From assembly GCA_000002435.2 (NCBI GenBank), contig CM018792.1: a stretch of 64,000 nt of DNA. One strand, 5' to 3'. Position 1 is the stretch's first letter, and the number at the start of each line of letters is the position of its first letter. Source of the DNA: Giardia intestinalis (Eukaryota). Positions 9,185 to 13,627 of the stretch are shown piece after piece. The position numbers and the translations under genes are program-made. A model generated the notes under the pieces. The model made no database searches and was not told the DNA's origin. It was given only the letters and a program-made list of their open reading frames with translations.

Positions 9185-12100
9185 CTACGCTTTCCCCCGA
9201 CAAATAAACCACCAACAGAGGAAGCCGGCAAGGCCTCCGACGACGACCACCACGGCGACGGTGATACCTGCTATGGCGCCTGTGGAAAGGCCTCCCTTAT
9301 TGACGCTTCCACCGGCACCGCCGCTAGATACGCATGCGTTTGCGGCCTCGTCCAGTGCGTGCCCCTCCGCGCATGCTTTGCACTTGGCTGTGCCCGTGTC
9401 CCCTGTCGGCGCATCACAGGCCGCACAGTTTGCCACTCCTTTGTTGCTATCTGCACCAACGGAGTCTGAGCACAGAATGCACTCGCTGCCCGGTGTCTTA
9501 ACTGATGCCTTGTTTTGGAAAACACTTCCGTCAGCCTTGCAAGCGGCACATACCCCACCGACTGCATTGGTGCATATAAGTTCTCCGGGAGACGCCCCTG
9601 TTTTATAACAGCCGCCCATGAAGAGGAAGTACCCGTCGCCGCCACATTTACCACACGAGGTGTCCGTGCCCTCTATTGCGGCTCCGCCCGATTGCGTGCA
9701 CTTTGCCGTCTTTGTGACGAGATCGTCCCCGAACGCCGTGCAGACACCGTCGATGGGTGCGAAGCCCTGCTTGCATTGTGTACACGCTTGGGCTGATCCT
9801 ATAGTTACCAGTTTGTCGACCTCGCATTGGAAAGACGGAGGGGCCCTGCATGCGTTTGCGGCCTCGTCCAGTGCGTGCCCCTCCGCGCATGCTTTGCACT
9901 TGGCTGTGCCCGTGTCCCCTGTCGGCGCATCACAGGCCGCACAGTTTGCCACTCCTTTGTTGCTATCTGCACCAACGGAGTCTGAGCACAGAATGCACTC
10001 GCTGCCCGGTGTCTTAACTGATGCCTTGTTTTGGAAAACACTTCCGTCAGCCTTGCAAGCGGCACATACCCCACCGACTGCATTGGTGCATATAAGTTCT
10101 CCGGGAGACGCCCCTGTTTTATAACAGCCGCCCATGAAGAGGAAGTACCCGTCGCCGCCACATTTACCACACGAGGTGTCCGTGCCCTCTATTGCGGCTC
10201 CGCCCGATTGCGTGCACTTTGCCGTCTTTGTGACGAGATCGTCCCCGAACGCCGTGCAGACACCGTCGATGGGTGCGAAGCCCTGCTTGCATTGTGTACA
10301 CGCTTGGGCTGATCCTATAGTTACCAGTTTGTCGACCTCGCATTGGAAAGACGGAGGGGCCCTGCATGCGTTTGCGGCCTCGTCCAGTGCGTGCCCCTCC
10401 GCGCATGCTTTGCACTTGGCTGTGCCCGTGTCCCCTGTCGGCGCATCACAGGCCGCACAGTTTGCCACTCCTTTGTTGCTATCTGCACCAACGGAGTCTG
10501 AGCACAGAATGCACTCGCTGCCCGGTGTCTTAACTGATGCCTTGTTTTGGAAAACACTTCCGTCAGCCTTGCAAGCGGCACATACCCCACCGACTGCATT
10601 GGTGCATATAAGTTCTCCGGGAGACGCCCCTGTTTTATAACAGCCGCCCATGAAGAGGAAGTACCCGTCGCCGCCACATTTACCACACGAGGTGTCCGTG
10701 CCCTCTATTGCGGCTCCGCCCGATTGCGTGCACTTTGCCGTCTTTGTGACGAGATCGTCCCCGAACGCCGTGCAGACACCGTCGATGGGTGCGAAGCCCT
10801 GCTTGCATTGTGTACACGCTTGGGCTGATCCTATAGTTACCAGTTTGTCGACCTCGCATTGGAAAGACGGAGGGGCCCTGCATGCGTTTGCGGCCTCGTC
10901 CAGTGCGTGCCCCTCCGCGCATGCTTTGCACTTGGCTGTGCCCGTGTCCCCTGTCGGCGCATCACAGGCCGCACAGTTTGCCACTCCTTTGTTGCTATCT
11001 GCACCAACGGAGTCTGAGCACAGAATGCACTCGCTGCCCGGTGTCTTAACTGATGCCTTGTTTTGGAAAACACTTCCGTCAGCCTTGCAAGCGGCACATA
11101 CCCCACCGACTGCATTGGTGCATATAAGTTCTCCGGGAGACGCCCCTGTTTTATAACAGCCGCCCATGAAGAGGAAGTACCCGTCGCCGCCACATTTACC
11201 ACACGAGGTGTCCGTGCCCTCTATTGCGGCTCCGCCCGATTGCGTGCACTTTGCCGTCTTTGTGACGAGATCGTCCCCGAACGCCGTGCAGACACCGTCG
11301 ATGGGTGCGAAGCCCTGCTTGCATTGTGTACACGCTTGGGCTGATCCTATAGTTACCAGTTTGTCGACCTCGCATTGGAAAGACGGAGGGGCCCTGCATG
11401 CGTTTGCGGCCTCGTCCAGTGCGTGCCCCTCCGCGCATGCTTTGCACTTGGCTGTGCCCGTGTCCCCTGTCGGCGCATCACAGGCCGCACAGTTTGCCAC
11501 TCCTTTGTTGCTATCTGCACCAACGGAGTCTGAGCACAGAATGCACTCGCTGCCCGGTGTCTTAACTGATGCCTTGTTTTGGAAAACACTTCCGTCAGCC
11601 TTGCAAGCGGCACATACCCCACCGACTGCATTGGTGCATATAAGTTCTCCGGGAGACGCCCCTGTTTTATAACAGCCGCCCATGAAGAGGAAGTACCCGT
11701 CGCCGCCACATTTACCACACGAGGTGTCCGTGCCCTCTATTGCGGCTCCGCCCGATTGCGTGCACTTTGCCGTCTTTGTGACGAGATCGTCCCCGAACGC
11801 CGTGCAGACACCGTCGATGGGTGCGAAGCCCTGCTTGCATTGTGTACACGCTTGGGCTGATCCTATAGTTACCAGTTTGTCGACCTCGCATTGGAAAGAC
11901 GGAGGGGCCCTGCATGCGTTTGCGGCCTCGTCCAGTGCGTGCCCCTCCGCGCATGCTTTGCACTTGGCTGTGCCCGTGTCCCCTGTCGGCGCATCACAGG
12001 CCGCACAGTTTGCCACTCCTTTGTTGCTATCTGCACCAACGGAGTCTGAGCACAGAATGCACTCGCTGCCCGGTGTCTTAACTGATGCCTTGTTTTGGAA

Positions 12101-13627
12101 AACACTTCCGTCAGCCTTGCAAGCGGCACATACCCCACCGACTGCATTGGTGCATATAAGTTCTCCGGGAGACGCCCCTGTTTTATAACAGCCGCCCATG
12201 AAGAGGAAGTACCCGTCGCCGCCACATTTACCACACGAGGTGTCCGTGCCCTCTATTGCGGCTCCGCCCGATTGCGTGCACTTTGCCGTCTTTGTGACGA
12301 GATCGTCCCCGAACGCCGTGCAGACACCGTCGATGGGTGCGAAGCCCTGCTTGCATTGTGTACACGCTTGGGCTGATCCTATAGTTACCAGTTTGTCGAC
12401 CTCGCATTGGAAAGACGGAGGGGCCCTGCATGCGTTTGCGGCCTCGTCCAGTGCGTGCCCCTCCGCGCATGCTTTGCACTTGGCTGTGCCCGTGTCCCCT
12501 GTCGGCGCATCACAGGCCGCACAGTTTGCCACTCCTTTGTTGCTATCTGCACCAACGGAGTCTGAGCACAGAATGCACTCGCTGCCCGGTGTCTTAACTG
12601 ATGCCTTGTTTTGGAAAACACTTCCGTCAGCCTTGCAAGCGGCACATACCCCACCGACTGCATTGGTGCATATAAGTTCTCCGGGAGACGCCCCTGTTTT
12701 ATAACAGCCGCCCATGAAGAGGAAGTACCCGTCGCCGCCACATTTACCACACGAGGTGTCCGTGCCCTCTATTGCGGCTCCGCCCGATTGCGTGCACTTT
12801 GCCGTCTTTGTGACGAGATCGTCCCCGAACGCCGTGCAGACACCGTCGATGGGTGCGAAGCCCTGCTTGCATTGTGTACACGCTTGGGCTGATCCTATAG
12901 TTACCAGTTTGTCGACCTCGCATTGGAAAGACGGAGGGGCCCTGCATGCGTTTGCGGCCTCGTCCAGTGCGTGCCCCTCCGCGCATGCTTTGCACTTGGC
13001 TGTGCCCGTGTCCCCTGTCGGCGCATCACAGGCCGCACAGTTTGCCACTCCTTTGTTGCTATCTGCACCAACGGAGTCTGAGCACAGAATGCACTCGCTG
13101 CCCGGTGTCTTAACTGATGCCTTGTTTTGGAAAACACTTCCGTCAGCCTTGCAAGCGGCACATACCCCACCGACTGCATTGGTGCATATAAGTTCTCCGG
13201 GAGACGCCCCTGTTTTATAACAGCCGCCCATGAAGAGGAAGTACCCGTCGCCGCCACATTTACCACACGAGGTGTCCGTGCCCTCTATTGCGGCTCCGCC
13301 CGATTGCGTGCACTTTGCCGTCTTTGTGACGAGATCGTCCCCGAACGCCGTGCAGACACCGTCGATGGGTGCGAAGCCCTGCTTGCATTGTGTACACGCT
13401 TGGGCTGATCCTATAGTTACCAGTTTGTCGACCTCGCATTGGAAAGACGGAGGGGCCCTGCATGCGTTTGCGGCCTCGTCCAGTGCGTGCCCCTCCGCGC
13501 ATTCCATGGGACTGCTTATTCCCTCTATTGTTCCGCACTGATTGCCAGTTGCGCGACTGTTTCTAGTGCCTCCAGCGCAGTTTGCAGCAAGCACATTCAG
13601 CACGAATAGAAGCTCTACTACCAACAT
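9185..13627 (-). CDS. variant-specific surface protein (VSP-A), 1480 aa, with eight tandem 172-aa cysteine-rich modules
   Basis: N-terminal signal peptide [17 protein letters not shown]. Dense CXXC motifs. GGCY motif. C-terminal TM plus invariant tail [16 protein letters not shown]. VSP 3' element follows the stop. Confidence 0.92.
   Translation of the reverse strand: [1480 protein letters not shown]
9330..13500. repeat. about 8 head-to-tail copies of a 516-bp unit inside VSP-A, apparently 100% identical at nucleotide level
   Basis: Identical spurious ORFs recur with a strict 516-nt offset (9618, 10134, 10650, 11166, 11682, 12198, 12714, 13230). The encoded protein repeats [17 protein letters not shown]...GDTGTAK eight times. 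Confidence 0.9.

Follow-up and report, generated by a model that had tools for sequence, protein, structure and literature searches.

On the minus strand of the window (by which we mean the whole 64,000-nucleotide stretch of Giardia intestinalis DNA that was analyzed) lies a complete coding sequence, 9185..13627, for a protein of 1480 aa, closed by a TAG stop and delimited from the list of open reading frames, its translation and an exact-sequence match; the frame is intact over 4.4 kb. Starting 12 nt past the stop codon, we read AGTAAAC (9166..9172, minus strand), a match to AGTPuAAPy, which we take to be the Giardia polyadenylation-signal consensus. At the other end, the start codon (ATG, 13627-13625) is embedded in CAatgTT (13623..13629, minus strand; tatactaCAATGTTgg), a candidate initiator of the form PyAatgTT, the candidate vsp Inr that occurs in 41% of the 260 vsp genes whose 5' end is complete, as well as in every vsp gene characterized earlier, and that is listed as CAATGTT for the gene vsp122 (Adam et al. 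2010, PMC2996952).

The first 43 codons (13499..13627, minus strand) are unique and encode a hydrophobic candidate leader—a candidate signal peptide, as read from the translation—followed by a short Cys-containing segment; the public annotation retains the protein as a VSP and not as a pseudo-VSP, under criteria that demand a SignalP-positive leader (Xu et al. 2020). The last codons before the stop (9188..9331, minus strand) translate as the conserved VSP C terminus: a Gly/Ser-rich stalk, a TM segment (about 9203-9277) and the cytoplasmic pentapeptide tail CRGKA (9188-9202). The columns of this anchor and of CRGKA are nearly invariant in an alignment of 65 VSPs, and a 233-aa model has a predicted helix at residues 216-229. 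The whole protein contains 150 Cys (10.1%) and 48 CXXC motifs, and it matches the Pfam family PF03302 (VSP) in nine stretches, with E=2e-57 and 195.3 bits against a cut-off of 31.4 bits. An earlier note on this DNA had called the gene a VSP, and the CRGKA tail, the TM segment, the CXXC-rich ectodomain, the Pfam match, the PyAatgTT initiator and an exact match to an annotated VSP of isolate WB all bear it out.

The Repeat Array

Nearly everything between these termini is repetition. A perfect tandem array runs from 9332 to 13502 (minus strand, 4171 bp) with a period of 516 bp, and it holds eight full copies and a further 43 bp with zero mismatches. When the window was compared with itself at a lag of 516, the identities were unbroken for i=9332..12986, leaving zero differences across 4128 bp of array; a repeat search likewise returned eight in-register copies, spaced by 516 bp and 100% identical. 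(Tandem Repeats Finder reported no array, its longest period being 500, short of 516.) The eight perfect modules of 516 bp, or 172 aa, described in the earlier note are thus exactly what is found, and they do lie, as it had said, in frame inside a coding gene; its coordinates for the array, 9330-13500, were off by 2 bp. Chance is no possible explanation of the array, given both the unbroken identity and a 68-nt string spanning the junction of one unit with the next, which occurs seven times in the window and not once in 100 shuffles. Membership among the tandem-repeat VSPs is a matter of an in-frame repeat present in at least two copies in the ectodomain-coding region, and here there are 8.08 copies of 516 bp in the ectodomain-coding part of the frame.

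In codon phase (minus strand), the units occupy 13498-12983, 12982-12467, 12466-11951, 11950-11435, 11434-10919, 10918-10403, 10402-9887 and 9886-9371. Each period is 172 codons, and all eight units are identical as protein, each with 18 Cys and 6 CXXC motifs. After the eighth unit, a partial unit of 13 aa (9332..9370, minus strand) closes the array; adding one base and the Cys codon before it gives a 43-bp motif with which every unit also begins. We also looked for shorter sub-repeats inside the 172-aa unit and rejected them, the best internal alignment scoring 40 against 36.6 +/- 6.5 for shuffles, so that the 516-bp unit is one domain-sized block. On the plus strand, there is an ATG-initiated frame of 168 aa in each unit, a mechanical by-product of one repeated antisense open frame.

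A Gene Already Catalogued

Residue for residue, the protein of the window is XP_001705598.2 / KAE8304120.1, an annotated VSP of Giardia intestinalis WB-C6 encoded on a 2,761,001-bp contig. An older record, XP_001705598.1, gives this protein with three units and 620 aa (that is, the window protein minus five units), and the protein collection that we searched held only four distinct sequences of the gene, of 1480, 620, 276 and 276 aa.

Is the gene, then, one that others have already described? Adam et al. (2010, BMC Genomics 11:424, PMC2996952) list vsp122, or GL50803_113357, as TR516 on chromosome 4, with the initiator CAATGTT, 620 aa, 60 Cys and 18 CXXC, and they single it out, among 30 tandem-repeat-containing VSP genes, for the largest tandem repeat of any VSP. 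Removing five units from the window protein leaves 150-5x18=60 Cys and 48-5x6=18 CXXC, equal to the values in their table. The 516-bp unit, both termini, the initiator and the chromosome are shared; the difference is that vsp122 in the 2007 assembly and the 2010 paper has 3 units (2 in the supplementary table) and 620 aa, whereas the window, from the long-read reference, has 8 units and 1480 aa. By matching attributes, the gene appears to be vsp122 / GL50803_113357 on chromosome 4, the tie to XP_001705598 being made through those attributes rather than through an explicit cross-reference. Both the gene and its 516-bp unit, along with the standing of that unit as the largest among VSP repeats, were already in print in 2010, and the feature is not new. 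All that has changed since then is the number of copies, which was 3 in the old assembly and is 8 in the long-read reference of 2020. GenBank/RefSeq has carried the 8-unit form from that reference onward, and the 516-bp repeat is discussed neither in Xu et al. 2020 nor in the paper comparing Be-2 with WB.

Relatives Among Repeat-Bearing Proteins

Stacks of Furin-like or EGF-like cysteine-rich repeats (e.g., Fu1-Fu2 of R-spondin) may be counted among the closest known systems, as may CRP136, a repeat-bearing cysteine-rich surface protein of Giardia. CRP136 reportedly has units of about 40 aa in over 20 copies; its source, Chen, Upcroft and Upcroft (1995), is reference 21 of PMC2996952.

Two VSPs also invite comparison. 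Like the window gene, vspA6 (CRP170, vsp67) carries an in-frame tandem array in its ectodomain and has a near-identical relative with about one copy (vspA6-S1), just as the window gene has a single-unit form; its copy number explains size differences, and its repeats are immunodominant (PMC2996952). Its unit, however, is 195 bp (65 aa) in about 22-23 copies, and 1.3 kb of nonrepetitive ectodomain comes after the array, whereas the window gene has 8 copies of 516 bp (172 aa) and almost no ectodomain outside the repeat. In that last respect, it is vspC5 (vsp90) that the window gene resembles, with an array running from just past the leader to the conserved 3' region and an exposed protein that is nearly all repeat; multiple alleles of vspC5 with different copy numbers have been reported (PMC2996952), and its unit, unlike that of the window gene, is 105 bp (35 aa) in about 25 copies. 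Among published VSP repeats, the unit length ranges from 105 to 516 bp, with the window gene at the upper limit (PMC2996952), so the suggestion in the earlier note that 172 aa is unusually long for such a unit was correct; the note had named the CRP136 and VSPA6 types for comparison.

The Single-Unit Form

In the assemblage AII isolate DH (AHGT01000015.1), the syntenic ortholog has one unit and 276 aa, in a setting that is 99.55% identical over 4.7 kb downstream and has the same neighboring genes. Four short-read metagenome contigs carry the one-unit, 276-aa form as well. The records give copy numbers of 1 (DH and the four metagenome contigs), 3 and 8 (the two WB assemblies), the low counts coming from assemblies in which repeats may be collapsed, and forms of 276 aa (one unit) and 1480 aa (eight units) recorded at one syntenic locus would be the size variation that the earlier note had thought plausible. 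All of the one-unit records are 454 or short-read assemblies, able to collapse perfect repeats. Four independent contigs run straight through the locus, which argues against collapse, short of proving the point, and the one-unit form lies unbroken in five independent contigs (1.6-163 kb, from different assemblers).

The DH allele contains the 43-bp motif of the array as a perfect direct repeat, its two copies 516 bp apart and flanking 473 bp. When the WB gene is collapsed to one unit and set beside it, 7 of 831 nt differ, 5 of the 7 being synonymous and 4 of the 7 lying in the unit. At these four of 516 unit positions, all eight WB copies have the WB base and none has the DH state, although about 16 substitutions would be expected in an array dating from the AI/AII split without homogenization. 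On these sequence differences, the array is either younger than the AI/AII split or homogenized, which is the alternative, recent expansion or concerted evolution, that the earlier note had drawn from the identity of the copies.

In the homolog search, which did not include the cluster of the gene itself, the highest-ranking VSPs are just 50-64% identical, so there is no close paralog with the unit; the nearest of them are small proteins of about 235-240 aa, each a single VSP. The homologs P0021 and P0041 of P15 (assemblage E) are off the syntenic locus, and thus the ancestral state outside assemblage A is not readable from P15. Among JGI metagenome contigs, the 68-nt multi-unit junction string had no matches; a 49-nt control common to all alleles also had none, so that the gene is absent from that collection and the lack of junction matches carries no weight.

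How Many Copies?

The count of eight belongs to one consensus assembly, the long-read reference, and it is possible, although we do not think it probable, that assembly and polishing helped to produce this number or the perfect identity of the units. With its two nuclei, Giardia carries four genome copies, its homologues may differ in copy number as alleles of vspA6 and vspC5 have been reported to do, and a reference is one consensus path through them; moreover, Adam et al. (2010, PMC2996952) warn that assembly may compress repeat numbers artificially, and the same clone has given 3 units in one assembly and 8 in another. (That the 2007 WB record has 3 units and 620 aa agrees with the expectation of the earlier note that such a gene would be prone to collapse.) The PacBio consensus was corrected with Illumina reads (Xu et al. 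2020), which are not uniquely placeable inside a perfect 4.1-kb array. Against this stand the PacBio reads themselves, normally longer than 4.2 kb and able to span the array, as well as the three units of the 2007 Sanger assembly, which are identical at the protein level too, so that long-read polishing does not by itself account for the identity of the copies. In any case, this alternative casts no doubt on the repeat itself.

How the Array May Have Grown

Our overall explanation, in which we have high confidence, is that the window comes from chromosome 4 of G. intestinalis WB clone C6 (the 2020 PacBio reference) and that this is the known VSP gene vsp122, made of eight small-VSP ectodomain modules in an array that would have grown from a single unit. 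From the anatomy of the locus, we imagine that the 43-bp direct repeat of the single-unit form was the seed, at which misaligned recombination or replication slippage would have given rise to an initial duplication in frame. From then on, the 516-bp units could have expanded the array by unequal exchange with one another, and the same process could contract it.

One might instead suppose that the array is old and has undergone concerted evolution, with ongoing gene conversion or unequal exchange keeping its copies identical, the one-unit alleles being contractions or collapsed assemblies. Zero differences in 4128 bp can stem from homogenization as much as from youth, and every one-unit record is of the collapse-prone kind; yet the DH state survives in none of the eight WB copies, the one-unit form stands unbroken in five contigs, and the nearest homologs are themselves single small VSPs, all of which makes an old array improbable.

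What the Protein Would Be

One module and the 13-aa closing hairpin account for almost all of the ectodomain in the single-unit ortholog of 276 aa, so that the WB protein amounts to eight small-VSP ectodomains set end to end, of about 146 kDa. It would be a type-I membrane antigen in which a leader precedes an ectodomain built almost wholly of the eight identical cysteine-rich modules of 172 aa, and a short stalk leads from there to a single TM helix and the CRGKA tail. VSP repeats are immunodominant, and alleles of vspA6 and vspC5 vary in copy number (PMC2996952); by analogy, the array, when expressed, would lengthen the surface molecule and present each epitope of the module eightfold, and a change in copy number would alter the size of the antigen.

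It is quite unlikely, in our estimate, that the gene is instead silent or rarely used and the array a neutral by-product of a recombination-prone family, with no role in antigen display: the literature searched yielded no transcript or peptide evidence for the gene, the portion of the proteomics supplement of PMC7332775 that was covered has no match for it, and, according to PMC2996952, one VSP is expressed per cell, so that most are silent at any time, but the frame is intact through 4.4 kb with the repeat in frame, the start codon has the PyAatgTT context that efficient vsp expression reportedly requires, Xu et al. (2020) kept the protein among the VSPs, and the differences from DH are mostly synonymous (5 of 7). 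In the covered parts of the Pollo et al. 2020 supplements, the gene number 113357 is matched only by chance digit strings.

Significance

There is little new biology in the array. The practical consequence is that the old 620-aa model, wherever it persists in proteomics databases, primers or antigen constructs, is of the wrong size, the reference protein having 1480 aa. The locus is also a clean natural example of one ectodomain-sized module grown to eight, with a possible 43-bp seed repeat still visible, and, for long reads or PCR, it offers a handy marker with which repeat instability and differences between alleles can be tested in a tetraploid parasite.

Could the array be changing now? 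That it is unstable on laboratory or infection time scales, so that its copy number differs between WB sublines, between the four genome copies or in the course of an infection, strikes us as a doubtful proposition; the discrepancy of 3 versus 8 units between the WB assemblies is compatible with it and is explained more simply by assembly collapse. If such instability were true, one VSP could vary in size and valency without gene switching, and growth from one unit to eight since the AI/AII split would reflect selection in favor of a coat protein that is longer and multivalent, assembled from whole ectodomain-sized modules.

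Results

The array and its gene

The 516-bp tandem array runs from 9332 to 13502 (4171 bp), eight full copies and a further 43 bp, with zero mismatches when each base is compared with the one 516 further on; these lag-516 identities form a single unbroken run (i = 9332..12986), and a repeat search placed 8/8 copies in register at 100% identity and a constant 516-bp spacing. The earlier note had put eight perfect copies of 516 bp (172 codons) at 9330-13500, and self-comparison bears out its count, its period and its "perfect", with only the coordinates 2 bp off. Tandem Repeats Finder returned nothing, solely because it admits periods no longer than 500, and a 68-nt unit-to-unit junction string occurs seven times in the window versus never in 100 shuffles. 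Each unit also carries open frames: seven identical 168-aa ATG ORFs on the plus strand opposite the VSP (one per unit, 9618-13220) and seven GTG ORFs of 121 aa, again one per unit, on the VSP's own (minus) strand but in a different frame. Both sets are the mechanical result of repeating one unit and are without evidence as genes.

The array is in frame within a minus-strand ORF (9185-13627) encoding 1480 aa: a unique N-terminus of 43 aa that starts with a hydrophobic leader, eight units of 172 aa with 18 Cys and six CXXC motifs each, a partial unit of 13 aa and a C-terminus of 48 aa. The whole contains 150 Cys (10.1%) and 48 CXXC motifs; its mass is calculated as ~146 kDa, and it matches Pfam PF03302 (Giardia VSP) over nine stretches (E = 2e-57, 195 bits, cut-off 31.4 bits). 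AGTAAAC, presumably a match to the Giardia poly(A) signal consensus, begins 12 nt past the TAG stop. The start codon lies in CAatgTT, the candidate vsp initiator (Inr) as defined in Adam et al. 2010 (PMC2996952).

By exact-sequence look-up, the protein is KAE8304120.1/XP_001705598.2, an annotated VSP of Giardia intestinalis isolate WB, clone C6 (ATCC 50803); the earlier record version in the same 90% cluster, XP_001705598.1, has 620 aa and three units versus eight and is otherwise identical. The catalogue of the WB vsp repertoire (Adam et al. 2010, BMC Genomics 11:424, PMC2996952) reports tandem repeats in 30 vsp genes, with units of 105 to 516 bp, and its supplementary table gives vsp122 (GL50803_113357) as TT_TR516, chromosome 4, complete, Inr CAATGTT, 620 aa, 60 Cys and 18 CXXC. 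Calculation for the three-unit protein yields exactly 60 Cys (150-5x18) and 18 CXXC (48-5x6). A second complete VSP ORF ending in CRGKA (60354-62396, +) has 680 aa, the size of the next catalogue entry, vsp123 (GL50803_137620), and therefore the window is WB chromosome 4 and the array gene is vsp122. The unit that the earlier note thought unusually long is indeed at the top of the published range, and it is this same gene that sets it: the gene, the 516-bp unit and its record length have been in print since 2010, and GenBank and RefSeq already contain the eight-unit protein.

The catalogue flags vsp122 as 'TT' (tail to tail), yet its convergent neighbour directly downstream (7609-8778, +) is without VSP features, a 389-aa protein with no Pfam hit on record that is conserved in DH, an assemblage AII isolate; window positions 1-9184 hold no VSP partner for vsp122. 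A conserved putative binding site for miR2 has been listed in the 3' region of 33 vsp genes, VSP-122 included (PMC5192507), and our literature search found no direct expression data for vsp122.

One, three and eight units

How many units does the gene really have? The 2007 Sanger assembly of WB has three and the 2020 PacBio assembly (Xu et al., PMC7000408) has eight, the outcome predicted by the warning of Adam et al. 2010 that assembly may artificially condense repeat numbers, and one that fits the earlier note's view of the gene as prone to assembly collapse. We found the change discussed neither by Xu et al. 2020 nor in the Be-2/WB comparison, nor in any paper naming the gene. It is plausible, if rather unlikely, that the eight or the perfect identity stems partly from assembly or polishing, or masks differences between the four genome copies. 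Such an effect would touch the count only, the existence of the repeat being unaffected.

A 276-aa one-unit form (43 + 172 + 61 aa) is in the same cluster: ESU38233.1, from DH (AHGT01000015.1). Three short-read metagenome contigs encode the identical protein, and a fourth encodes a variant with two residues different. Every one-unit record derives from a 454 or short-read assembly, and such assemblies are able to collapse perfect repeats; that five independent contigs traverse the locus without a break argues for a real single unit. The DH locus is the true ortholog. Downstream, 4.7 kb align at 99.55% identity, with the 389-aa protein, a GTP_EFTU protein and a Rit1_C protein as common neighbours; upstream, identity is 97.2% (12944-14150) and then falls abruptly to ~83% with many indels (14151-15261), divergence being far greater in the upstream intergenic region than in the gene or the 3' flank.

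Without seven of its units, the WB gene differs from DH at 7/831 nt, five of them synonymous. Four of the seven differences lie within the unit, and at all four sites the WB base is in 8/8 WB copies. Eight copies diverging without homogenisation since the WB/DH split should have gathered ~16 substitutions, versus 0 seen (Poisson P about 1e-7), and therefore either the expansion postdates the AI/AII split or the array has been continuously homogenised, much as the earlier note had supposed in proposing recent expansion or concerted evolution. An ancient array kept identical by concerted evolution, with the one-unit alleles as contractions or collapses, seems to us improbable, and less likely than a contribution from assembly or heterogeneity.

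The module

Within the 172-aa unit there is no significant internal sub-repeat (best internal alignment 40; shuffled units score 36.6 +/- 6.5). In a 5.8-billion-sequence collection, the nearest proteins apart from this gene's own are VSPs, either small and single-module (~235-240 aa, 38-50% identity) or longer and matched partially; the two among them from isolate P15 are not syntenic. In essence, a single module amounts to an entire small-VSP ectodomain, and the WB protein lines up eight such ectodomains in a row. The last unit and the C-terminus were modelled with AlphaFold2 on a 65-sequence alignment; the model is of high confidence over residues 21-190 (pLDDT ~97) and folds as short beta-hairpins. 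The 13-aa partial-unit segment packs confidently on the preceding unit and is poorly predicted when alone at the N-terminus, and therefore the structural domain is, in the model, phase-shifted by ~14-20 residues against the unit as cut. Sequence search found no relative in the PDB, and Foldseek against solved structures gave no significant match (best E = 0.04).

Other repeats in the window

An 84-bp tandem repeat that includes part of a tRNA-Ile(GAU) sequence forms very large arrays; it occupies 53226-56529 (39.3 copies) and 56559-57389 (9.9 copies) at 99-100% match and, in the opposite orientation, 16484-16742 (3.1 copies). A complete tRNA-Ile(GAU) gene adjoins each 84-bp array (16692-16765, +; 53203-53276, -), and a 1300-aa 'ORF' (52685-56587) is probably read-through of the repeat. 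Also adjoining these arrays are two tandem repeats with a 14-bp unit and 13.6 copies apiece (16780-16970 and 52995-53188), mutual reverse complements (TGGGTCCTCTGTGG/GAGGACCCACCACA). Segments 15480-16742 and 56964-58393 match one DH segment (L002 718-2199, from the contig of the one-unit ortholog) at ~88% identity in opposite orientations, which suggests an inverted segmental duplication flanking ~40 kb of the window.

Discussion

The anatomy of the array, its identity with the database record, the forms of one, three and eight units and the lineage-specific bases are established. How, then, could one unit have become eight? A perfect 43-bp direct repeat (ATGCGCGGAGGGGCACGCACTGGACGAGGCCGCAAACGCATGC) stands at both unit ends and is already in the one-unit allele, and it would be the obvious substrate for an initial in-frame duplication, most likely through misalignment during recombination or through slippage. 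From there, unequal exchange between the 516-bp units would have lengthened the array, and it can also contract it.

A silent gene, with the array as a neutral by-product, is improbable, as the frame is intact across 4.4 kb, the Inr context is present, the gene is annotated as a VSP rather than a pseudo-VSP, and divergence is mostly synonymous.

In vspA6 the repeats are immunodominant; vspA6 and vspA6-S1 have about 23 and about 1 copies respectively, which is their main difference, and copy number also varies among alleles of vspA6 and of vspC5 (PMC2996952). By that precedent, when vsp122 is the expressed VSP, the trophozoite coat would carry the same epitopes eight times over on a lengthened molecule, and a change in copy number would alter the size of the antigen. 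An unstable copy number within WB itself is conceivable, if doubtful, and the array may then be a source of antigen size variation that is independent of switching.
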